Notes: a model not told the origin generated them from the sequence alone. A stretch of 39,860 nucleotides of DNA from an uncultured Candidatus Saccharibacteria bacterium (GCA_964401885.1 CAYOAC010000001.1:1-39860), one strand, 5' to 3'; counted from the first letter of the stretch, positions 25,691 to 36,142 are shown. Numbers and translations: made by a program.

Positions 25691-25756
25691 TTCACATTTT
25701 GATAAAAAAGTCTATTTAATTTTTACCTATATTTAATTTGGAATATTTAAAAACAC

Positions 25757-25784
25757 TTGACAAATATTTTATATCATGTATACT
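25757..25784 (+). promoter_or_regulatory. Sigma-70-like promoter
   Basis: TTGACA, a 16-nt spacer, then TATACT. It faces the GC-rich non-coding island downstream. Confidence 0.45.
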
Positions 25785-25790
25785 ATTGCA

Positions 25791-26446
25791 AGATAAGTTT
25801 TTCACATGATTTCTGATTTTTGTTAGTAAGGTGGATATGTGAATCTTTTTAAAAGGATTTAGATACCCACCTTACTGCACAAATGCATAGGGAACAGATG
25901 GGATTTGATTAATGGATATGAGTTCGCCGCCTCACACGCTCCGAGCCGGCTGCTTCGCCGCCTCAGACACTCCCGAGCCGGCTGCTTCGCTGCCCCACTT
26001 CAGGGTCGGCCTCTCACAGCAAAACTCCCAAAAATCAAATAATATAATGAACACAAGCGCAGTGGAACCATCGCCGGCTTCACTTCGCGACAACCTGGCC
26101 TCGTAGAAAGGAGGAATTACTTAATACCCGTTAGAGAAGTGCCATAACAGGACTCAACTCTAAAAGGGCTAGTTTGACCAAATACACCCTGCACGTCAGT
26201 CGTTCCAATCGCACCCACCGCCAAATTAAAATTCCCTTCACCTCTATCATTTAGAAAGGTAATAAGCACCTAGAACCCTCTAGAGAAGTGCCATAGCACT
26301 CAAACTCGAAAAGGGCTGGTCGTGGCGTAAAAGTCACAAATACTACACAAAAATCAAAATCAGAACGTACTTTCGGACCTCCGGAGTCTCTCGCAACTAG
26401 CTTACCCAGCTAACTTGCCACGAGATTCCGGGGGTCTTCTTTTTTA
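25791..26446 (+). ncRNA. Candidate large structured non-coding RNA (GC-rich island with internal repeats)
   Basis: About 650 nt with G+C much higher than the flanks and no credible ORF. It contains a tandem ~33-nt duplication (..ccgcctca[c/g]ac[g/a]ctcc(c)gagccggctgcttcg..) and two ~75-nt dispersed copies (tagaaagg...tagagaagtgccata[a/g]c...aaaagggct[a/g]gt). It ends in a T-run after ggacctccggag...ctccgggggtc. Confidence 0.3.
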
Positions 26447-26472
26447 TAAAAATGAAAATCTTTAATAACTTC

Positions 26473-26500
26473 TTGTCTTTTTATTTATTTTTCGTATAAT
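26473..26500 (+). promoter_or_regulatory. Candidate promoter for tRNA-Ala
   Basis: TTGTCT, a 16-nt spacer, then TATAAT, about 40 nt upstream of the tRNA. Confidence 0.4.
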
Positions 26501-26539
26501 GATTTCACTTGATTAAATCAAGACCAATTTAAGAAATTG

Positions 26540-26614
26540 GGCCCGTAGCTCATCTGGTAGAGCACCTCACTTGCACTGAGGGGGTGGCAGGTTCGAGTCC
26601 TGTCGGGTCCACCA
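26540..26614 (+). tRNA. tRNA-Ala (anticodon UGC)
   Basis: Cloverleaf with acceptor GGGCCCG/CGGGTCC carrying G3:U70, anticodon loop CTTGCAC, T-loop GGTTCGAGTCC, and an encoded CCA. Confidence 0.95.
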
Positions 26615-26687
26615 TTGACGAAAACCCATTTTCGTTTTAATATAATCAAGAATCTCAAAGTACCTGACGTTTGTTGGGAATTTCACT

Positions 26688-27581
26688 TTGAATCAAATAG
26701 TACTTAACAAAAAGATTGAAATGAAAAGAACCAAAAAAGTATTTAATTTTTACACTGAATCTATAAATCTTATACCGTTTCATGTTATAATTGCTTTTAT
26801 CTGTGCAGGGATTAGTTTTATAGTCTGTGATCCATGTCATAAACCTATTACATTTAGTGTTTTATTGTATTCTATTCTAACTGGTTTTATCCCTATGTAT
26901 TTGTGGTTGTCACCATTTTTAGTTGCTTTGTTAATAGATGTTTTGGAAATTTTGACAAAGTGGATATCTGGAATTTCCCAGAAAATAGTGAAGCATACAA
27001 AATCAAAAACTACAAAAACAAAATGGTTTTCAGCAAATGGAATGGATCGGAATTTCTCAAACTTACTAGAAGGCACATTCGATCCGAAAGATTACTGTTT
27101 CTTTTTGGATGGTCAAAATCCAGAATTTACTGATTGTCTTATTCGATTAGCAACAGACAGGTTTGTCACACATCTTGTCGGTAGGGAATTGCGTGATTTG
27201 GATAATGATAAAAATGAAGATTTTTATACCGAAAGCTGGAAAACTTTATCCACTAAAACGGTAGGAGATGAGATTTTTATTTTTCTCTCAATAAGGGCAC
27301 GTGAACGAAAGGGTATCAAGGATTCTTTTAATAGCGTATTCTTTTTTGTACAATTGAAGGTGTCAGATGACAAAGAATCAATAGTATTCTCCGGTTTATC
27401 TTTTAGACACAGGAGAGACCTAGAAGAAATGAAAGTTGAGTTTGAAAGATATGTTTCAGCTCAGTGTGGCGATAGTTCTTTTTCTCCATTAAGTTCAGAT
27501 GTTCTTGCAGAATTAAAGGCTTTGTCGAAACCAAGAGTGGATAGTACTCCTGTAAAAAGCGCAATAATTGTTCCTGTCTAG
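26688..27581 (+). CDS. Hypothetical membrane protein (two N-terminal TM helices plus a cytoplasmic domain)
   Basis: 297-aa ORF directly downstream of the tRNA. An alternative start is MKRTKK at 26721. No recognised homolog. Confidence 0.55.
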   Translation: MNQIVLNKKIEMKRTKKVFNFYTESINLIPFHVIIAFICAGISFIVCDPCHKPITFSVLLYSILTGFIPMYLWLSPFLVALLIDVLEILTKWISGISQKIVKHTKSKTTKTKWFSANGMDRNFSNLLEGTFDPKDYCFFLDGQNPEFTDCLIRLATDRFVTHLVGRELRDLDNDKNEDFYTESWKTLSTKTVGDEIFIFLSIRARERKGIKDSFNSVFFFVQLKVSDDKESIVFSGLSFRHRRDLEEMKVEFERYVSAQCGDSSFSPLSSDVLAELKALSKPRVDSTPVKSAIIVPV

Positions 27582-27674
27582 AATATATGAAACAATAGAG
27601 GAACCAAAAGGGCTGAGATACACATTCAATTCGTGGTCTTGGTCCTTTTTTAATTCAAAATATTTTTTAATATC

Positions 27675-27729
27675 TTTAACTCACCAACCACCTGGTTCAA
27701 CAAAATCACATCCAATTCCACTATTGACA
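27675..27729 (+). repeat. Intergenic repeat copy a (ends in TTGACA)
   Basis: ctttaactcaccaaccacctggttcaacaaaatcacatccaattccactattgaca. Confidence 0.8.
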
Positions 27730-27751
27730 AAAACTATTAAATATATATAAT
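27724..27751 (+). promoter_or_regulatory. Sigma-70-like promoter formed by the 3' end of repeat a
   Basis: TTGACA (27724-27729), a 16-nt spacer, then TATAAT (27746-27751). Confidence 0.5.
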
Positions 27752-27758
27752 ATTCTAC

Positions 27759-27896
27759 ATGAAGTCTAACTTCAAAAACGTGAGTTCCAAATAGGATCTG
27801 GCCGTCGGCCACTGCACAGGCTTACGTAGACAGAAATGTCTTTGCGTGCAGTAAACGATTCAAACCTCCGCTGGTTTTTCTGGCGGAGGTTTTTTA
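27759..27896 (+). ncRNA. Candidate small RNA (~135 nt) with its own promoter and intrinsic terminator
   Basis: GC-rich, non-coding, with several local hairpins (gaagtctaacttc; ggccgtcggcc; ctgcac...gtgcag enclosing gacagaaatgtc). It ends in the terminator cctccgctggtttttctggcggaggtttttt. Confidence 0.45.
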
Positions 27897-27905
27897 TAAA
27901 ATATT

Positions 27906-27958
27906 CTTTAACTCACCAACCACCCAGTTCAACAAAACCATATCCAAGTCCACTATTG
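27906..27958 (+). repeat. Intergenic repeat copy b
   Basis: ctttaactcaccaaccacccagttcaacaaaaccatatccaagtccactattg. Shares 27 identical nt with copy c. Confidence 0.8.
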
Positions 27959-28030
27959 TTTTTACCTTTATTTATTAATGTGTATTTTTTATACTTTAGT
28001 ATGAATTTGAATCATTGGTTTTTAAGTGTT
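27951..28030 (+). promoter_or_regulatory. Conserved upstream block 1 with the palindrome ATACTTTAGTAT (27991-28002)
   Basis: About 75 nt, roughly 85% identical to 36256-36335. The palindrome overlaps a -10-like TATACT. Lies upstream of the E1-like operon. Confidence 0.5.
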
Positions 28031-28127
28031 CATAAGCTATTGGGATGTTGCGAAAACATTGACATTATTGATTATGCTTGTATTGTAACAACGAAATGCT
28101 ATTTGAAAATTCAAACCAAAACTACAA

Positions 28128-29213
28128 ATGAAATACCAAATAAATCCTTCTGCCACTCTGTTGGTAAAAGAGAAGGGTAATATGATTGTTGTTAGATTTT
28201 TACTGGACGCCACACGCAATCTCCATGCTTTCGAAATGTCACCGATTGGTGAACAAATATTAACAAGGATGTATGAAGTGGTATCTGAAGAGAATCTACT
28301 TACTGAATTTGATCTTGGAGGTGAAGATTTGGAGCAATTCCTTGCTCCACTAATTACTTCTGGATTGGTTCTTTCTGAAGAAAATTTCACTCATCTTAAT
28401 GCTCTCGGAGAGCGTAATATTAGGACTATGGAATTTTTCCGATCGTTTGCTTCTGTTGAAAGACCAACTATCGAACTGGTTCAGAAGCTTATGAATTCAA
28501 CCATTCTAGTTCTTGGACTTGGAGGTATCGGTACCTGGGTTGTAGAGATGTTTGCTCGGATGGGAATAAAAAAACTAATACTTGTCGATCCTGACAGTGT
28601 AGAAGAATCAAATATTCCTCGCCAAGCGATGTTCACTCGACTTAGTGTTGGCCTTTTAAAAACGGAGGCAGCGAAAGCGTTCTGTGAGGCCATATCTGAA
28701 AATATTGAAGTACAAATATTTGCCGAGCAGATATCAGATTCAGAATCCTTGTTATCAAAACTTCAGGGAGTTGATCTTGTCATAAACTGTGCTGATAAAC
28801 CAGATGTTGATTTCACTAATTCACTCGTAACATATGCTTGTTTCAAAGCAGGTGTGCCTCACATCCTTTGTGGAGGATATGATGGACATCTTAGTTCACT
28901 TGGACAGACTGTGATTCCTGGAGAAACTTCTTGCTGGTTTTGTTTTGCCGATAGCGGTATTTACGAAAATCTTCTTGATGGCTTCAGGATTGTAGACAGG
29001 ACATCGAATCAACAGATCGGTGGAACAATTTGTCCTATTGGTGTTTATGTTGCTAGCTTCCAGGTTCAAGAAGCTGTAAGAATTCTTACAGGTTGTTCTG
29101 AACCAGTCATGATTAACCGCAAGGCAGAGATAGATTTTACAAATCTGTCTCAAAACTTTGTAAACGTACCCAAACTCAAAACATGTAAACTTTGTGGAAA
29201 TGAAAACCATTAA
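28128..29213 (+). CDS. E1-like (ThiF/MoeB/MccB-family) adenylyltransferase with an extra N-terminal ~100-aa domain and a C-terminal Cys4 zinc motif
   Basis: Nucleotide-binding VLGLGGIGTWVVEMFARMGIKKLILVDPDSVEESNIPRQ. Cys pairs CWFC and CKLC. The N-terminal domain resembles the N-terminus of the downstream enzyme. Confidence 0.85.
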   Translation: MKYQINPSATLLVKEKGNMIVVRFLLDATRNLHAFEMSPIGEQILTRMYEVVSEENLLTEFDLGGEDLEQFLAPLITSGLVLSEENFTHLNALGERNIRTMEFFRSFASVERPTIELVQKLMNSTILVLGLGGIGTWVVEMFARMGIKKLILVDPDSVEESNIPRQAMFTRLSVGLLKTEAAKAFCEAISENIEVQIFAEQISDSESLLSKLQGVDLVINCADKPDVDFTNSLVTYACFKAGVPHILCGGYDGHLSSLGQTVIPGETSCWFCFADSGIYENLLDGFRIVDRTSNQQIGGTICPIGVYVASFQVQEAVRILTGCSEPVMINRKAEIDFTNLSQNFVNVPKLKTCKLCGNENH

Positions 29214-30432
29214 AATTAACCCTCATCTGGAACTTATGGATCCAGTTGCAGGACAAGTGAGAAATACTAAATCAGGAGAGGTATTCAGCCTTTCCTTCGA
29301 AGCACTGTCTGTTATTTCATTATTTGATGAACCTAAAAAAGTCGGTGACGACTTTGAGGGTTTGGAAAATATTGTTATGTCAGATGATAATGAAGCGGTG
29401 AAAGCATTCATTGAAAGTCTTTTGGAACAGGAAGTTCTGATTTTCGAGGAAGAATTCGATCAAACTCCCAAAAGCGATTGGGATCATAAAAGATTATTAG
29501 ATTTGGCTCTGGTTGAAAAACCATTCCTGTCTTGTTTGAGTGTTCCTGTCGCAGGTTTGGATTCAGAATATCCGTATGAGTTTGCAATCGTTGGAATGCC
29601 TTTCGATCTTGGTTCTACAGGATTTCCTGGATCAAGATTTGGTCCGACCAGACTGCGGGAACTTTCTGCTTCTGGCACAGATTATCGAGGACGATTCAGT
29701 GATTTGTCATGTGCTGGATGGTTATCAGAACATGGTGTGAAACTGTGTGAAGGGAAAAAGATTGTAGATATTGGAGATGTGATTCATCAAGTAGGGGAGC
29801 CATTCCATGACTTCTTCAAAAGGGTGAAGAATGTTAATAATATTCTGCGAGAAAAAGGTGTCATGCCAATCTTGATTGGAGGAGACCATTCTTGTACATA
29901 TGCATCGGTCTGTTCTGTGATAAAATATTCACAAGGCAAATCTTTGCATCTTGTTGTGTTCGATGCACACACAGACCTTGCGGACTACAATGCTTCTATT
30001 TCGCATAATCATGGCAACTTTGTTACCAGACTACTTTCTGAAGGGGTAGTAAAAAAGGTGACACATGTTGGTCTTCGTGGGATGCTTGGAAAAGCAGAAA
30101 CAAGGGACGGTTACGTCGCTGTTTATGCAGATCAGTGTACTTCTGTGGAAAAAGTAATGGAATACATTCCATTCGACCCTTTGGAGACTGTCTATGTCTC
30201 TTTTGATGTTGACGTGATAGATCCAATCTTTGCACCAGGAACAGGCACGCCTGTTTCTTTGGGACTAACACCTCAAATAGTTTTGTCAGTGATTAGAAAA
30301 ATCTTCGCATCTCAGAATGTAGAAGGTTTCGATATCGTTGAGTATAACCCTATGAGGGATATCAATGATATGACGGGTCATCTACTAATCAGTATGCTTC
30401 CGAAGTTTCTGGACGCTCTGCGTTCAAAGTAA
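29194..30432 (+). CDS. Arginase/agmatinase/formiminoglutamase-fold (ureohydrolase) metalloenzyme with an extra N-terminal ~110-aa domain
   Basis: Binuclear-Mn motifs GGDHS, DAHTD and SFDVDVIDP. Overlaps the E1-like gene by 20 nt (operon). Confidence 0.85.
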   Translation: MEMKTIKINPHLELMDPVAGQVRNTKSGEVFSLSFEALSVISLFDEPKKVGDDFEGLENIVMSDDNEAVKAFIESLLEQEVLIFEEEFDQTPKSDWDHKRLLDLALVEKPFLSCLSVPVAGLDSEYPYEFAIVGMPFDLGSTGFPGSRFGPTRLRELSASGTDYRGRFSDLSCAGWLSEHGVKLCEGKKIVDIGDVIHQVGEPFHDFFKRVKNVNNILREKGVMPILIGGDHSCTYASVCSVIKYSQGKSLHLVVFDAHTDLADYNASISHNHGNFVTRLLSEGVVKKVTHVGLRGMLGKAETRDGYVAVYADQCTSVEKVMEYIPFDPLETVYVSFDVDVIDPIFAPGTGTPVSLGLTPQIVLSVIRKIFASQNVEGFDIVEYNPMRDINDMTGHLLISMLPKFLDALRSK

Positions 30433-30654
30433 GAAGATTGACTGATTTAGAAAGTGGCGTATAGTGTTCACAGGTTCGAATTCTCGGGCCGTTCAAACAT
30501 CCAACTACGGAAAGGAGAATAATAAGCACATGAAACAGATTCAAGCCAGTAAGCTCACAATCGTTCCTCTCGGAGTGGTCGTCGATGCCGTCTGTATGCG
30601 CGGCCTTCGTCGCCGTCGTGCATGACATTCCATCATCTTTACTGATGGTTCCCA

Positions 30655-30694
30655 CACCCTGCCAAGTCCTCGACTCGGCAGGGTGTTTCTTTTA
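30655..30694 (+). terminator. Rho-independent terminator after the arginase-fold gene
   Basis: caccctgcc...ggcagggtg stem followed by tttcttttat. Confidence 0.7.
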
Positions 30695-30704
30695 TAATAC
30701 AAGC

Positions 30705-31241
30705 ATGACTTCACCAACAATCAAAACTCAAAATTATATAATACGACCTTTCAAAAAGGAGGATGCTTTATTATGGCAAAGTTGGGACATAGATCCTGAA
30801 ATCCAATCTCATATGCCAGAACCTGAGAATGAGTCTCAAGATATCTCACAACAATATGAATATATTGAAGAATGCGAAAAAGACGAAGAAGGATATTATT
30901 GGTCTGTTGAAACAAATGACGGAGTAACTATTGGTACAGTATCTTTATTTGAAATAAATTCTCACCATAAAAATGCCAATGTTGGGATTGTAATTGGTGA
31001 TAAAAATTATTGGGGTAAAGGTGTTGCAACAGAAGTACTTCAAACTTTGAGCTCTTATGCTTTTGAATATTTAGATGTTGTTCGAATTAGCGCAGAAGTT
31101 GAAGCTAATAATATTTCAATGCAAAAAGTATTTGAAAAGGTTGGATTCGTACAAGATGGAGTATTTAAAAAAGCACGAGTAAAAGAAGGAAAAAGAATAG
31201 ACGTGCTACATTTTGGGATAGTGAAAAATATTTTGAATTAA
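30705..31241 (+). CDS. GNAT-family N-acetyltransferase (RimJ/RimL-like)
   Basis: IIRPFKKEDA...VGIVIGDKNYWGKGVATE...ISAEVEANNISMQKVFEKVGF. Start placed at the Met after the terminator; the ORF finder gave 30585. Confidence 0.85.
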   Translation: MTSPTIKTQNYIIRPFKKEDALLWQSWDIDPEIQSHMPEPENESQDISQQYEYIEECEKDEEGYYWSVETNDGVTIGTVSLFEINSHHKNANVGIVIGDKNYWGKGVATEVLQTLSSYAFEYLDVVRISAEVEANNISMQKVFEKVGFVQDGVFKKARVKEGKRIDVLHFGIVKNILN

Positions 31242-31555
31242 AGAACGTCCTGTAAAAAAGTTTATATTTATTCTTCAAAAAATAATATTTCTCATGAACT
31301 TAAAACCGGAGGTGATGGCTATTGTGATGTTTTAAGTATAGAAGAAGATATTTGGCTTAGAGACTTAAGGCACAGAGAATCAGATAATTAAAACAGCCCT
31401 CCTTTCGGAGGACTGCTCTTGGATGTGGTACCCTTAAAGTTTATGGAAACCCTAAGATATCTTTATTATATGAAGAACCTTGTTTTTGTCAATATTTTCA
31501 GTAAGTTGACATTTTAAATCAATATAATCTTTAAAACCTTCAATTCCTGCACTAC

Positions 31556-31587
31556 TCGGTTCAACAAAACCATATCCAAGTCCACAA
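31556..31587 (+). repeat. Intergenic repeat copy c
   Basis: ctcggttcaacaaaaccatatccaagtccac. Confidence 0.75.
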
Positions 31588-31599
31588 AAATAAAATCTG

Positions 31600-31748
31600 G
31601 AAGCGTGAGCTTTCAGATTTTTAATTTTTGTAGGGCCCGACAGGACGAGAAAGACGGAGGCCTAGGGTCCCTGCGTCCGAGTGACAACGAGGACCTGGGA
31701 TGGCCGAGTCGGGGTCGCGGAAATTTTCTCTAGAAAATTATCTGTGAC
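31600..31748 (+). ncRNA. GC-rich non-coding island, a candidate structured RNA
   Basis: Starts near GGGCCCG (31633-31639), which is identical to the tRNA-Ala 5' acceptor strand, and runs into the duplicated tRNA 3' end. Contains the hairpin aattttctctagaaaatt. No ORF. Confidence 0.3.
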
Positions 31749-31767
31749 CGAGTCCTGTCGGGTCCAC
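31749..31767 (+). repeat. Direct repeat of the tRNA-Ala 3' end (attR-like): CGAGTCCTGTCGGGTCCAC
   Basis: 19 of 19 nt identical to 26594-26612 inside the tRNA-Ala T-arm and acceptor. Followed by ctactgTTTGACA, as in the repeat family. Confidence 0.8.
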
Positions 31768-31786
31768 TACTGTTTGACAAAACACA

Positions 31787-32023
31787 ATGGTTATTATTGA
31801 GGTTCATTTATCCAAAGAACCCAGAGAAATAGATCCAGTTTATCTCAAAAAGATCAAGGATTTTAAGTCAAAAAATCCAGATTATTCATCAGGATATGGA
31901 TATCATTTCAAGAAAGATGTTATTACTGTCCGAAAATTTCCAAATAACGGCCAACCAGGTGAATATGGAACACTAGTGCCTGAATATCACGGTAATGGTT
32001 ACGCATACGATTTTATGAAGTAG
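31787..32023 (+). CDS. Hypothetical small protein (78 aa) with a Gly/Tyr-rich C-terminus
   Basis: MVIIEVHLSKEPREIDPVYLKK...SSGYGYHFKK...GEYGTLVPEYHGNGYAYDFMK. Followed by a good terminator. Coding status unproven. Confidence 0.35.
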   Translation: MVIIEVHLSKEPREIDPVYLKKIKDFKSKNPDYSSGYGYHFKKDVITVRKFPNNGQPGEYGTLVPEYHGNGYAYDFMK

Positions 32024-32053
32024 CGAATAGAGAAGGTTTTCTATCTACAAAAC

Positions 32054-32088
32054 CCCGAAGGCATTAATTTGTCTTCGGGTTTTTATTT
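32054..32088 (+). terminator. Rho-independent terminator
   Basis: ccccgaaggcattaatttgtcttcgggtttttatttt. Confidence 0.8.
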
Positions 32089-32120
32089 TGTCTGAATTTG
32101 TTTTTATACTTTTAATATCT

Positions 32121-32187
32121 CATTCAACTCCACCAACTCTTTCACAACCAGGTTCAACAAAACCACCCCCCCAAGTCCACCATTGAT
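32121..32187 (+). repeat. Intergenic repeat copy d
   Basis: ...caccaactctttcacaaccaggttcaacaaaaccacccccccaagtccaccattgatt. Confidence 0.7.
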
Positions 32188-32189
32188 TA

Positions 32190-32712
32190 GAAAACGAATG
32201 GGTGAGGTTATACGGGTGCTTGACTTTCAAAACAATTTCATTAGAATACCTCATTGGACTCTGTTGATCAATATCCCACCGAGGAAGGAGTGGTGACGAT
32301 CGTTGAATGATAAATGAATATATATGCAAGAAAATGTCTTCGTTCCCTTCCAAGGGGATGCCTCAAGACGCTCTGCTATGTCCAAATATTACGGATTAAC
32401 CCCACTAACGTGGGCAAGCGTCCGTTGCCGGATAAGTACTCGCCGATGTATCTGATATTGGATTGCATAAAAGTTTAGAAGTTCAAGGCTTATCAATGAA
32501 CACAACGATGGTAAAGTGTGTTTCAGAGGATGGGTTGGTCTATCCCAGTTTGAGAACACTGGTGCGCCAAATGACAGTGAAAATGAATCTCAAAGGAGAG
32601 GAATCTCTAGAGAGATAACAAAAATCTTGTCCCTACAGATGACTGTAAATACACACTTTTGCTCGGCCGAGCAAGACATGTGGACTGGTCATCTTAGGGA
32701 TTTTTTTTATTA
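32190..32712 (+). ncRNA. Candidate structured non-coding region (moderately GC-rich, ~520 nt)
   Basis: Only short, compositionally odd ORFs on either strand. Local hairpins: ccccactaacgtgggg-like, ggcaagcgtccgttgcc, and the palindrome gctcggccgagc. Ends with T8. Boundaries are uncertain. Confidence 0.25.
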
Positions 32713-32812
32713 AAGAACACTTTATTCATTGACGAAACTAATATTAAGTGTTATTTTTATTTTTGAATCGGCGAACAACAAGTAGCCGAAAAACAACAGA
32801 AAATATTTGAAA

Positions 32813-33064
32813 ATGAGAGAAATCAAATTCGATGTATCTGACAATCTTCTAGGTTTTGTCTGTCGTGAACTTTTGGAAATTGGTACCAACCCATGTATTT
32901 CAATTGTTCGCACAGAGGACAGGATCGGTAAAGGAAAAATGATGCGTCTTGGATTCGAGGTGCCTTCTAGAGAAACATTTGTATCAGTTACAAGATGGCT
33001 TAGGACCCTTGGGGATGCAGAACTCGTATTCGATGTCGAAACGAAGGAAATACCTGTCACATAA
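32813..33064 (+). CDS. Hypothetical small protein (~84 aa)
   Basis: MREIKFDVSDNLLGFVCRELLEIGTNPCISIVRTEDRIGKGKMMRLGFEVPSRETFVSVTRWLRTLGDAELVFDVETKEIPVT. Protein-like composition with its own downstream hairpin. The overlapping minus-strand ORF is Ser-rich low-complexity and was not called. Confidence 0.4.
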   Translation: MREIKFDVSDNLLGFVCRELLEIGTNPCISIVRTEDRIGKGKMMRLGFEVPSRETFVSVTRWLRTLGDAELVFDVETKEIPVT

Positions 33065-33103
33065 AAGCAACCGTGCTATATTTGGCTTGGAAAATTAGTT
33101 TAA

Positions 33104-33140
33104 CAACCGCTTGACCCTTTAGGGAGGCGGTTTTCTATTT
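33104..33140 (+). terminator. Hairpin terminator
   Basis: aaccgcttgaccctttagggaggcggttttctatttt. Confidence 0.6.
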
Positions 33141-33177
33141 TCAAAATCTCTTTCAAAACTTTTAATTCAGAGACTAT

Positions 33178-33210
33178 CTGATTCAACAAAATAATATCCA
33201 ATTCCACTTC
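33178..33210 (+). repeat. Intergenic repeat copy e (degenerate)
   Basis: ctgattcaacaaaataatatccaattccacttc. Confidence 0.6.
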
Positions 33211-33466
33211 TTTAGAAAAGTGTTTTAATTTTAATCACTCTTGGTTTATTCTGAGCCTGTAGAAGGGCAAGTCATCTAGGATTTATGTGGGAAAATTGGG
33301 TCAGTCATGATTTTTTCAACCAGTATAACTGCAGGTGTGCGTTTTTTAGTTTAGATTCAGATTAGAATTGAAGGAAACATTGACTTTTTTAAATAAAATG
33401 ATATTGTCCGTGAAGGCTTGTTATGTTTGACTCAGATAAGTCAAAATAGCGAGGAAAACAAGAACA

Positions 33467-36142
33467 TTGAAACAACTAGTTAGCAATACTATGCCACAAG
33501 ATGAATTCCCACCAAGAGGTGGAAGACCACAGGATCGAGATTTAACCCTCGCTCCAAATGAATATGCATTTGTAATGGACACTACCAAAGGTGTTGTCCA
33601 AACATGTGTTGGCCCGCTCGTACATACCATTTCCGGTAATGACCAACCTGTGCGTTGGAACCCGGGAACTAGTAAGTTCGATCGTTGCGCTCAAGACGCC
33701 GCAATTTGTCTTTTTGTCTACGTACAAGAAGGTGATTACGTTCGTCTTACTAATCCTGCCAAGAGTGACACCCAGTTTCATCCTCCGGTCGGTGGTAAGC
33801 AAAATGCGGTAGACCTAAAACATGGTCGTACTGTTAATCTGCGTGGTCCACTTTCTTTTGCCCTTTGGCCCGGCCAATCGGCACAAGTTATCGAGGGTCA
33901 CCGTTTGAGGTCCAACGAATTCTTGCTTCTTACCGTTACAAACGAAAATGAGGCGAGGAACAATTGGACTAGTGCGGTAATGGAACCGCAACAATCAGTC
34001 GGTTCAGTCGGTTCGAGAGCCGAAGGTGATGAAGGTGAAACAGCCGCTACAATCGAAAAGGCCAATATTGTTACTCCCAAGAGTACCAACATTGATCCTT
34101 CTAAGCTGACTGTTGGTCAGCGTCTTATTATTTGCGGTACGGAATGCAGTTTCTATATGCCGCCAACGGGTATTGAAGTTATTCCGGTTGAAAACGGACG
34201 ATATGTCCGTGAAGCAGTGACCCTCGAACGTTTGGACTATTGCATTCTTCTTGATGAAAACGGTATTCGCCGTCTTGTCACTGGACCGAATGTTGTGTTT
34301 CCTGAGCCGACCGAGACGTTTATCACTGATGCTCAAGGATCGAATATTTTCACAGCTCTTGAGCTCAATGAGCTTCAGGGTGTGTATGTGAAGGTTACCG
34401 CCAATTATACGGATGAAAAAGGTGTTAAGCATAGAGCTGGTGATGAGTTATTTATCACTGGTGCCCAATGTCCAGTTTATGTTCCTCGTGAGGAACATCG
34501 TATTATCCTGTATGGTGACTCCAGTAAGGTGAAGCACAATTCTGTCGCAATTACTGCTGGTGAAGCTCGCTATGTGATGGATCGTATGACTGGTGATGTG
34601 GAAACTGTTAAGGGACCAAAAATGTTCCTTGCAGATCCGCGCAAACAATTGCATATCCGTCGGCCGTTGCCAGAAAGATTGGTTAAGTTGCTTTATCCTA
34701 GAAATAGTGAAGCAATTGAAATCAATGAATGGCTTCGCAAAGAAGCTGCTAAATCTGGATCTGGCGATATAGTCCTTGATGAAAGTGCGCAATTGTATCG
34801 CGCTTCAACTACAGGTGATCGCAGTTTGTCCCGTCGTCGTGCACCTGGAGCAGGTCAAATTATTGCTGAATCGTTTGATCGTGGTGGCCAATATACACCA
34901 CCACGCACTATTACCCTCGAAACGAAATACGAAGGTGCAGTGCAATTTAGCGTGTGGCCTGGTTATGCGGTGCTTATCGTCGACAAGACTGGTAAGAGCC
35001 GTGTTGTTCAGGGTCCAAGTCCAGTGATTTTGGATTACGGCGAAGTCCCACAAGTCTTCTCATTGTCTACCGGTACTCCGAAGACGGATGAAAAGATTGT
35101 CGAGGATGTCTTCCTCAAGACGCATGGAAATTGCGTTTCGGATGAAGTTATCGTCGAGACTGAAGATTTGGTCAATATCCGTATTCGTTTGTCCTATCGC
35201 GTTAACTTCGAAGGTGATGATCCCAAGAAGTGGTTCGAACTCGACAACTACGTTCAATTTATGTGTAAGCACCTGCGCTCAATACTCAGGAATGCTGCAC
35301 ATGGATACGGTGTTGAGGCGTTCTATAGCGATGCGGCTAACATCGTTCGCGATACAGTTCTTGGAGGCACAACTCCCAAGAAGAGCGAAGGTGAAGGTCT
35401 CAAAGCCGAACGTACTGGTCGCGCATTTGCCGAAAATGGAATGCGTGTCTACGACGTTGAAGTCCTTGAGGTTGATATTGATGATAATGAAATCGCGAAC
35501 CAAATGCTCGCATTTCGGCATTCGACTGTTCAAGGTGCGCTCCGGATTCGCGCTGCAAGGCAAAAACTGGAAGAAACCAGAGCTATTGAGGATACCAAGC
35601 GCGAAAGTTTGGCTGAAACGATGAAGACTGAAGCTGCTCAAGCTGAAGCAGAAATGCAAAAGCTGGAAGCTCAAGTCCAGATTGCAAATGCCAGGCAAGT
35701 TTCTGAATTTGGTCTTCAAAGAGAAAGGCAGGAACAAGAACTGTCGATGTCAGGACGCAAGTTGCAGGCTGATAAGGCTAATCAGGCTGAGTTGGACGTT
35801 ATTGAAGCGGCTAAGCGTGATCGTGAGCGGGCATCTGGTGAACTCAAGCATGAAATGGCTAAAAAGGCGGAAGAACTTCGTCTTACTGGTCTTAATGCTG
35901 AAGCTGATGCCTTGGTCAAGAAGACTCAGGCGGTCTCGCCGGACTTGATTGCAGCACTTCAGGGTGTTGCTGCGAGTGGTCTTGCTGATAGTATGGCGAA
36001 GAACTTCAGTGTTCTTGCTATCCTTCAAGACAAGGGTGTTGCTGATGTAGCCAAGAGTGTGTTTGCAAACACGCCTCTTGCTGATTCTATCAATCAAGTG
36101 CTTCGACATCTCTCTACCCCTAAAGGTGGTGATGTAAGCTGA
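33467..36142 (+). CDS. Major vault protein (MVP) homolog: N-terminal tandem vault repeats, shoulder domain, C-terminal coiled-coil cap-helix
   Basis: Recurring ~55-aa units with the GxE(L/W)(F/L)(I/V).G....Y(V/M)P pattern: GQRLIICGTECSFYMPPTGIEV and GDELFITGAQCPVYVPREEHRI. The shoulder-like block GAVQFSVWPGYAVLIVDKTGKSRVVQGPSPVILDYGEVPQVFSLSTGTPK...VIVETEDLVNIRIRLSYRVNFE aligns with eukaryotic MVP ...[39 protein letters not shown]...[22 protein letters not shown]. The last ~200 aa are strongly heptad/coiled-coil. 891 aa, which is MVP-sized. Markedly higher G+C than the surrounding genome. Confidence 0.85.
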   Translation: MKQLVSNTMPQDEFPPRGGRPQDRDLTLAPNEYAFVMDTTKGVVQTCVGPLVHTISGNDQPVRWNPGTSKFDRCAQDAAICLFVYVQEGDYVRLTNPAKSDTQFHPPVGGKQNAVDLKHGRTVNLRGPLSFALWPGQSAQVIEGHRLRSNEFLLLTVTNENEARNNWTSAVMEPQQSVGSVGSRAEGDEGETAATIEKANIVTPKSTNIDPSKLTVGQRLIICGTECSFYMPPTGIEVIPVENGRYVREAVTLERLDYCILLDENGIRRLVTGPNVVFPEPTETFITDAQGSNIFTALELNELQGVYVKVTANYTDEKGVKHRAGDELFITGAQCPVYVPREEHRIILYGDSSKVKHNSVAITAGEARYVMDRMTGDVETVKGPKMFLADPRKQLHIRRPLPERLVKLLYPRNSEAIEINEWLRKEAAKSGSGDIVLDESAQLYRASTTGDRSLSRRRAPGAGQIIAESFDRGGQYTPPRTITLETKYEGAVQFSVWPGYAVLIVDKTGKSRVVQGPSPVILDYGEVPQVFSLSTGTPKTDEKIVEDVFLKTHGNCVSDEVIVETEDLVNIRIRLSYRVNFEGDDPKKWFELDNYVQFMCKHLRSILRNAAHGYGVEAFYSDAANIVRDTVLGGTTPKKSEGEGLKAERTGRAFAENGMRVYDVEVLEVDIDDNEIANQMLAFRHSTVQGALRIRAARQKLEETRAIEDTKRESLAETMKTEAAQAEAEMQKLEAQVQIANARQVSEFGLQRERQEQELSMSGRKLQADKANQAELDVIEAAKRDRERASGELKHEMAKKAEELRLTGLNAEADALVKKTQAVSPDLIAALQGVAASGLADSMAKNFSVLAILQDKGVADVAKSVFANTPLADSINQVLRHLSTPKGGDVS

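Follow-up and report, generated by a model that had tools for sequence, protein, structure and literature searches.

The DNA considered here is a stretch of 39,860 nt from an uncultured Candidatus Saccharibacteria bacterium (GCA_964401885.1, CAYOAC010000001.1:1-39860), called the window in what follows, and the element in question is a folded non-coding module that lies 5 kb downstream of a tRNA-Ala gene and ends in an exact copy of the 3' end of that tRNA. The gene, tRNA-Ala(TGC) with an encoded CCA (26539-26614, + strand; found by ARAGORN and, with 63.6 bits, by the Rfam tRNA model), is the anchor of an array of gene cassettes. Within it the 19-mer CGAGTCCTGTCGGGTCCAC, i.e., the sequence that we call X, runs from C56 of the T-loop to one base past the discriminator (X1, 26594-26612, +), and the same 19-mer recurs, 19/19 identical, at 31749-31767 on the same strand (X2). 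A third copy is absent from the window even at up to two mismatches, and the number of matches expected by chance is 0.00 (100 dinucleotide shuffles). Cassette DNA begins directly 3' of X1, and the order along the window is tRNA-Ala/X1, cassettes 1-3, the module (31586-31767), cassettes 4-5, and the region of a major vault protein (MVP) homologue. A preliminary description of this locus had pointed out the duplication, which our search confirms, and had taken it for the attL/attR signature of a single islet of about 5 kb that lacks an integrase; that reading is weighed below. The closest genome records are metagenome-assembled genomes (MAGs) labelled Candidatus Paceibacterota and Candidatus Saccharibacteria, both lineages of the Candidate Phyla Radiation (CPR).

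The distal 19-mer provides the 3' strand of the helix that closes a GC-rich element of about 135 nt (31633-31767). In this element an inverted copy of the tRNA 3' end (X', 31633-31649, +), a conserved three-way-junction core (31650-31748, +) and the direct copy X2 follow one another, and together with a spacer (31586-31632, +) they constitute a non-coding module of about 180 nt. In the spacer an A-run, a hairpin and a T-run follow one another, much as in a bidirectional terminator (terminator-like site at 31592-31621). Positions 31633-31646 (GGGCCCGACAGGAC) are the reverse-complement partner of 31752-31765, and the helix between X' and X (P1) has 14 bp in the window, including a G.U pair (G3.U70). 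The core consists of the junction AAA, helix P2 (31653-31710), the junction GG, and helix P3 (31713-31749), the last pair of which takes the first base of X2; X2 (31749-31767, +) is at the same time the 3' arm of the module and its border to the next cassette. The heptamer GGGCCCG (31633-31639), which had been noticed before as identical to the 5' acceptor strand of the tRNA and tentatively ascribed to coincidence or to a remnant of a tRNA-like structure, is real, but it is neither of these; it belongs to one side of a helix whose pairs covary within the family described below.

The GC content of 31633-31767 is 0.60, against 0.31 for the genome. Folded with RNA parameters, it reaches -76.3 kcal/mol (z = -6.2); folded as single-stranded DNA with DNA parameters, the sense strand has z = -5.55 and the antisense strand z = -2.9. 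The sense strand is the stabler one in 18/18 module copies, on average by 13 kcal/mol (p = 8e-6). Across these 18 sequences, P2 and P3 are paired to 97-100%, and pairs changed on both sides number 27, a value that none of 500 shuffles reaches (14.6+-2.2), while all of the register-shifted controls collapse. The proximal 9 bp of P1 are also well paired across the family and show changes on both sides. The core is near-invariant, and its conserved unpaired bases are GAAAG, GGA, YAGGG, GAU, and GG. We compared the window and six loci with Rfam 15, at gathering as well as permissive thresholds, and only the tRNA passes; no other family, RtT, Y RNA/YrlA, 6S, SRP and ribozymes included, comes near its gathering score, and the weak matches over the module region are to unrelated microRNA and snoRNA models. 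In the window the closing helix reproduces the acceptor and T stems of tRNA-Ala, G3.U70 and A73 included, and in this it is reminiscent of tmRNA or of an alanyl-tRNA synthetase (AlaRS) minihelix. A tmRNA or tRNA pseudogene was nonetheless rejected, there being no T-arm hairpin or tag frame in the module and no tmRNA found by ARAGORN or Rfam, and so was an AlaRS minihelix mimic, of which the acceptor-like part of the helix is not conserved. The junction sequences, by inspection, misfit a hammerhead or other small ribozyme, in line with the lack of any Rfam match.

When metagenomes were scanned with a 20-mer taken from the core, 11 of the matching loci proved genuine and four were chance matches; a covariance model (R1) brought the total to about 18-20 module copies. 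Every homologue sits 3' of a tRNA gene (Ala, Arg, Glu, or Trp) or of a tRNA-end-like remnant, and its arms match the local tRNA: at each tRNA locus the 3' arm of the module copies the last 19 nt of the tRNA, the 5' arm is its reverse complement, and the core is almost unchanged. Modules are co-oriented with the tRNA, usually 40-85 nt behind it, at six different tRNAs, i.e., Ala-TGC (the window, L004, L021/22, L024, and L028/29), Arg-CCT (L006 and L011/18), Arg-TCT (L010), Glu-CTC (L007), Glu-TTC (L013, about 800 nt away), and Trp (L008 and L019). The spacer is part of the module, since its hairpin is homologous between modules at different tRNAs and the sequence downstream of tRNAs that have no module is unrelated. 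Two near-identical strains differ at tRNA-Trp, with two module units in L008 and one in L019; tandem units also occur in L007, and in the overlapping contigs L017 and L012 there are three modules, with 1.2 kb of cassettes in one interval and 7 kb in the other. Subtypes of the P2 and P3 tips track neither tRNA type nor locus, from which it follows that modules are replaced or recombine with one another. It could be argued that all this is a non-functional by-product, i.e., a local duplication of tRNA 3' ends, as in the tyrT/RtT repeats of E. coli, that was spread by unequal crossing-over; the tandem units in L007 and L008, and a 46-nt duplication with flank sequence in L006, would fit. We consider this highly unlikely in view of the core, which is unlike tRNA flanks and is kept, with compensatory changes, at six tRNA loci and across lineages whose Ddl proteins are 78-85% identical.

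Several features of individual family members are recorded here as separate observations. In L010 (1082-1351), the acceptor stem of tRNA-Arg(TCT) has an apparent C5.A68 mismatch, and the 5' arm of the module complements the 3' end of this tRNA at all 19 of 19 positions, forming with the spacer a palindrome with arms of about 41 bp; 3' of the decayed 3' arm of this module there is a second GACCGATTCCT... stub that resembles another tRNA end. The unit of tRNA-Arg(CCT) plus module appears inverted between L006 and L018/L011, where homologues of the flanking genes swap sides and strands. A subfamily (L011 848-1000, L018 1240-1464, and L021 11200-11441) has an extra hairpin of about 55 nt, starting with CACC(G/A)CA, between the 5' arm and the core, and in L021 helix P3 is replaced as well.

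The structural conservation raises the question of a functional RNA. According to this alternative, the chief one to our proposal below, the module would be a non-coding RNA made by read-through from the tRNA or from a cassette, selection would keep its 3' 19 nt identical to the tRNA, and its role might be that of an alternative 3' half, of maturation control, or of a decoy or sponge for factors that bind tRNA ends; cassettes would then accumulate only because the repeated X sites are recombination substrates. The pair of claims, taken jointly, is doubtful in our estimation, though it deserves serious consideration. A core with 0.60 GC in a genome with 0.31, invariant unpaired bases, covarying helices and strand-specific structure are all what one would look for in an RNA, and so is the constant co-orientation with the tRNA, usually 40-85 nt behind it, even in housekeeping contexts without cargo. 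When tRNA and module were folded as one transcript, the minimum-energy fold paired the 5' half of the tRNA with the distal X in 5/6 loci, and X' sequestered the tRNA's own 3' end; formally, such a molecule is a tRNA with a T-loop insertion of about 180 nt. This fold could explain why the distal X tracks changes in the tRNA. In L021 the distal X follows a compensated acceptor-stem change, C6U/G67A, while X' does not. On the other hand, a terminator-like hairpin stands between tRNA and module, and the module is not regularly preceded by a promoter; promoter-like sites are instead located 3' of it, and this order of signals is the reverse of what is expected of an independent RNA gene. In the window, L009, L012, L015, and L017 cassettes part the module from any tRNA, so that models relying on a co-transcript cannot apply at those loci. 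The distal X has decayed in L010, L007, and L011/18, where X' still matches the tRNA, and three related lineages have no module at all. Where the tRNA-side X and the distal arm differ (L010, L007, and L028), X' pairs better with the former than with the latter: -40.5 versus -20.0, -33.1 versus -19.1, and -30.8 versus -25.4 kcal/mol. This suggests that X, spacer, X', and core came together and that the distal X was displaced and became free to decay.

Further loci with the Ddl-tRNA-Ala arrangement, which is kept in relatives, were reached through Ddl homologues. The upstream neighbours Ddl, UvrC, UvrA, and UvrB are present in all of them, and no intI integrase adjoins. Four lineages (L004, L024, L021/22, and L028/29) carry the module directly after tRNA-Ala, at a distance of 40-85 nt, and lack the islet genes; a module 5 kb downstream of tRNA-Ala occurs in the window only. 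The MAG contig L004, for example, reads Ddl, tRNA-Ala, a 45-nt spacer of A-run, hairpin and T-run, and then the module homologue, the 5-kb segment being absent. Wherever the module is present at tRNA-Ala, X occurs exactly twice and follows the substitutions of its own lineage's tRNA (CGAG..CGGG in the window, CAAG..CGGG in L004 and L024, CAAG..CAGG in L021); the two copies are identical in L004, L024, and L021/22 and differ by one mismatch in L028/29. The duplication is thus older than the 5-kb segment and did not depend on it, since it is present in relatives without the segment, and the module itself is probably an older or independent insertion relative to that segment. The attL/attR interpretation held insofar as this is an att-type duplication of a tRNA 3' end, but the two copies are not the ends of a 5-kb insertion. 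As for empty sites, a tRNA-Ala directly followed by the distal flank was looked for: in L023, L025, and L027 only one X is present and the module is missing, as in probable empty sites, and the flank in L025 (TAGTTGACAAAAG) resembles the flank 3' of X2 in the window, but the remaining four lineages keep both X with only the module between them. No homologues of the window genes from 26.6 to 39.8 kb were found at the relatives' loci, and the variable region after tRNA-Ala is accordingly at least 13 kb long. On the other side of the tRNA, the window has a Ddl-tRNA-Ala spacer of 848 nt (25691-26538; 40% GC, few ORFs), compared with about 75-185 nt in relatives; within it 26104-26173 recurs as a direct repeat at 26252-26320, and 25825-25876 is an inverted repeat, and it has neither an Rfam match nor a homologue at related loci. 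Farther upstream in the window are RpoC, DnaG, RpoD, TGT, UvrB, UvrA, UvrC, and Ddl.

What separates tRNA and module in the window is three gene cassettes, which are part of a larger array reaching at least to 33207. Cassette 1 (26613-27721, +) has a promoter-like site at 26615-26643, a 297-aa ORF at 26688-27581 without a Pfam match, and the terminal repeat B1 (27648-27721). Cassette 2 (27722-27953, +) is short, with a promoter-like site at 27724-27751, no convincing ORF, and repeat B2 (27898-27953). Cassette 3 (27954-31585, +), the largest, encodes by Pfam a ThiF/E1-like protein (28128-29213), an arginase-fold protein (29194-30432), and a GNAT (30585-31241), and ends in B3 (31512-31585); the preliminary gene list holds, with these three genes and the unassigned 297-aa ORF. 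B3 closes with the tRNA-end-like GGTTCAACAAAACCATATCCAAGTCCAC (31558-31585), and this is the islet's own right end. Beyond the module, cassette 4 (31768-32180, +) has a 78-aa ORF (31787-32023), a terminator-like hairpin (32054-32079), and repeat B4 (about 32110-32180), and cassette 5 (32181-33207, +), without a long ORF, ends in B5 (33137-33207). The promoter-like sites stand immediately 3' of the junctions, one of them perfect (TTGACA-16-TATAAT, 27724-27751) and the other TTGACG-17-TAATAT (26615-26643).

The B repeat, of about 75 nt, was found in 28 copies, all on the tRNA strand and all downstream of tRNA-Ala: five in the window, seven in L012, four in L028, three each in L017 and L027, two each in L023 and L009, and one each in L004 and L015. 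Its last 28 nt resemble the tRNA from the T-loop to the 3' end, and it shows no fold beyond that of shuffles (z from -1.2 to +0.5). The opposite strand encodes an ORF of 19-24 aa, V(D/E)LD(M/I)(V/I)LLNQVVxELKxLKxIL, whose GTG start lies on the cassette junction; in B3 it is VDLDMVLLNRVVQELKVLKIILI* (31517-31585, -), with the GTG exactly at the junction, and paralogues occur in B1, B2, and B5, the B4 copy being frameshifted in a C7 run. Pairwise differences fall 657/711/1137 on the three codon positions, i.e., third positions are enriched about 1.7-fold, and this bias indicates coding constraint on the peptide. Cassettes also turn up at different positions in different genomes: an ORF of L004 (7926-8306) is 60% identical to one of L012 (2234-2773), pointing to a cassette common to both, and the flank 3' of the tRNA in L027 equals the flank 3' of a module in L012 and L017.

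These observations bear on the idea that a tyrosine integrase put a single island of about 5 kb into the 3' end of tRNA-Ala, with the 19-mers as attL and attR, and that the integrase gene was lost later. Exact direct repeats of the T-loop-to-3'-end block are what such an event would leave, and the ThiF-arginase-GNAT part is foreign in composition, its genes having no homologues at the relatives' orthologous locus; the compositional comparison that had been proposed earlier bears this out, cassette 3 standing apart by both GC (0.379 versus 0.312 in the backbone) and tetranucleotides (distance 0.342 versus 0.209+-0.025 in backbone controls). However, alleles with the module only have the duplication without the island, the distal copy is built into a conserved structure with covarying pairs, of which it forms one strand and its own complement the 5' one, the segment is broken up by promoter-like sites and by three terminal repeats, and the window ORFs searched contain no integrase remnant. 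A single island is in our judgement quite unlikely. The bracketed DNA is inserted, as the preliminary description had it, and variable, four lineages lacking its genes; it is not one old, decayed island but three cassettes of a longer array.

Some points on the gene content are added for completeness. The ThiF/E1-like and arginase-fold genes overlap by 20 nt, and in each protein some 115-125 N-terminal residues extend beyond the Pfam match; RiPP-recognition (PqqD-like) domains of a peptide-modification cluster were suspected in these extensions, but Pfam gives no support and the two have no mutual similarity. Downstream of cassette 4, some 1.3 kb (32181-33466, 38-39% GC), i.e., cassette 5 and the run-up to the MVP gene, have promoter-like sites, no ORF longer than 112 aa on either strand, and no recognizable gene. 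The MVP homologue (33467-36142, +) is 891 aa long (Pfam MVP_shoulder 2.9e-24, Vault_3 1e-09), has 46-49% GC, and has more than 4000 bacterial homologues at E<=1e-10, in Myxococcota, Eremiobacterota, Riflebacteria, Parcubacteria, and others; its gene belongs to the variable region and is situated beyond the cassette array, 1.7 kb from the module. Like cassette 3, the MVP region is compositionally foreign. We also considered the module as a vault RNA partner of MVP and rejected this, because two other bacterial MVP loci (L001 and L002) have no module and many module loci have no MVP.

A recombinase gene was sought in several places. Among ORFs of at least 120 aa in the whole 39.9-kb window there is no member of the Phage_integrase, resolvase, transposase, or HUH families, in agreement with the earlier remark that the islet carries no recombinase. 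A scan of ten ORFs in L012, of which eight lie between two modules, gave no match either, and none was found in the scanned neighbours of modules at other tRNAs or in the gene tables of related loci, so that the integrase search around the locus that had been called for came back negative for the window and for the examined parts of related loci. A phage or plasmid origin was rejected, with no true match in IMG/VR (three patterns) and none among INPHARED phages or PLSDB plasmids; the IMG/VR matches L020 and L026 are chance matches in high-GC DNA. One could then imagine that the module RNA is a programmable guide, like IS110 bridge RNA, TnpB reRNA or the homing crRNA of CAST V-K, whose arms set the tRNA-gene target for a protein encoded elsewhere. 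The arms do vary with the target tRNA on a constant scaffold, one arm being complementary and the other identical to the target strand, and there is no recombinase in cis. But the arms correspond to one and the same 19-nt stretch and are base-paired to one another, where a guide would have open loops; none of the known guide scaffolds in Rfam matches, and the loci examined have no IS110, TnpB, IscB or Cas gene. RNA-guided recombination thus seems unlikely to us.

Taking these results together, we propose that the two 19-mers are copies of an att-like recombination site X and that single-strand hairpin integration lies behind the layout; from the sequence comparisons available, we hold the chances of this to be about even. 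In this CPR lineage the position directly 3' of tRNA genes is frequently taken by the module. According to our proposal, the element would be inserted as a single-stranded nucleic acid, in which X' folds back on X to give a hairpin copy of the tRNA-end duplex, and a recombinase encoded elsewhere, by the host or by a helper, would exchange one strand with X in the tRNA gene, yielding X(tRNA)-cargo-spacer-X'-core-X. In the window, three cassettes would later have been inserted exactly at the X of the tRNA, pushing the module 5 kb downstream; more cassettes follow the X of the module. That a single strand reacts, that the recombinase acts in trans and that the events took this order is what we infer from the arrangement, which has the topology of a single-stranded circle recombining with a duplex target through a hairpin of inverted target-like sites; integron attC sites work on kindred lines. 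The broader proposition is that CPR (Paceibacteria-like) bacteria carry an undescribed, tRNA-anchored gene-capture system in which cassettes and module insert without a recombinase in cis and the core with its arms serves as a retargetable substrate or guide, either a folded single strand or an RNA; this we put forward tentatively, as a possibility to which we would give well below even weight.

Several features of this layout resemble systems already described. The nearest precedent for the hairpin is the CTX phage, in whose attP(+) an att copy pairs, on the same strand, with a second, inverted copy 90 bp away, and which is integrated by attP(+) x dif recombination through the host XerCD, with no integrase of its own (PMC4246890). 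The module shares with CTX-type elements (IMEX) the lack of an encoded recombinase, two inverted target-like sites about 100 nt apart that pair within one strand (PMC4246890), and an integrated layout of target copy, cargo, inverted copy, loop, and target copy. It differs in its target, which is a tRNA 3' end, with at least six tRNAs used, instead of dif, and in its "loop", which is a highly conserved, covarying three-way junction; single-strandedness would moreover be a property that we ascribe to it from its layout. The array as such is reminiscent of integrons and CALINs, with co-oriented short cassettes that each end in a member of a repeat family (at least five in the window), one fixed anchor, cassettes at different positions between genomes (L004/L012 and L027/L012), and no integrase beside the array. 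Unlike in integrons, the anchor is a tRNA gene, the cassettes have promoter-like sites of their own, and the B repeats are not palindromic and encode a peptide on the opposite strand; attC-like sites were rejected for them because they have no fold and, by inspection, no GTTRRRY core.

With islands and prophages integrated in tRNA genes, the array has in common the identity block from the T-loop to the tRNA 3' end and the tandem accretion with newer insertions nearest the tRNA. Williams, in 2002, is said to have distinguished sublocation classes of tRNA integration, including T-loop-class tyrosine integrases. The present elements differ in that no integrase is found at the loci examined and in that they go down to about 180 nt, are non-coding, and contain an inverted att copy. 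In E. coli, the RtT RNA of the tyrT repeats, which Rfam lists, is a non-coding unit that lies directly 3' of a tRNA, repeats at its own terminus some 19 nt from the 3' end of that tRNA, and can be tandem. The module is alike in all these respects, also when set beside 3' external transcribed spacer RNAs; it differs by its inverted arm, its junction core, and the many tRNAs involved, and it has no match in an Rfam library that should include the RtT model. In the literature on CPR integrons, tRNA-linked RNAs, and integrase-less tRNA elements, most subscription papers being outside this scope, we found no description of the module. Both tRNA 3'-end integration and cassette arrays are known; what sets the present loci apart is the module, with one inverted and one direct arm copied from the tRNA end, together with terminal repeats that encode a peptide and the lack of a recombinase in cis.

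Several points weigh against the hairpin-integration model, and it is not our intention to play them down. No recombinase was identified among the loci examined, and no free circular or excised form was seen. The acceptor-like, distal half of P1 is paired in only about half of the 18 copies; this rules out conserved tRNA mimicry, and it also counts against the model. A mere hairpin loop does not need a core as invariant as the one observed, which argues for an additional RNA or protein-binding function. The B repeats at the borders of ordinary cassettes carry no X' and no fold, so that the two types of border may call for different mechanisms. The model offers no account of the way in which a module comes by arms that fit a new tRNA. 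Finally, all of the evidence is comparative, and its source is about 30 metagenomic contigs, most of them short.

The genomes of CPR bacteria are tiny, and their ways of acquiring genes are poorly understood. The region 3' of tRNA-Ala is a hot spot for variable genes, with at least 13 kb of lineage-specific DNA in the window that includes the ThiF-arginase-GNAT operon and an MVP homologue, and its cassettes are bounded by two repeat families that appear undescribed. Exact repeats of a tRNA end should, at loci of this kind, not be taken as simple island boundaries. If the module is a recombination substrate or guide, it would represent a compact, seemingly retargetable system that does without a recombinase in cis and inserts DNA beside chosen tRNA genes without destroying them; if it is a functional RNA instead, it would represent a new class of structured RNA tied to tRNA 3' ends.

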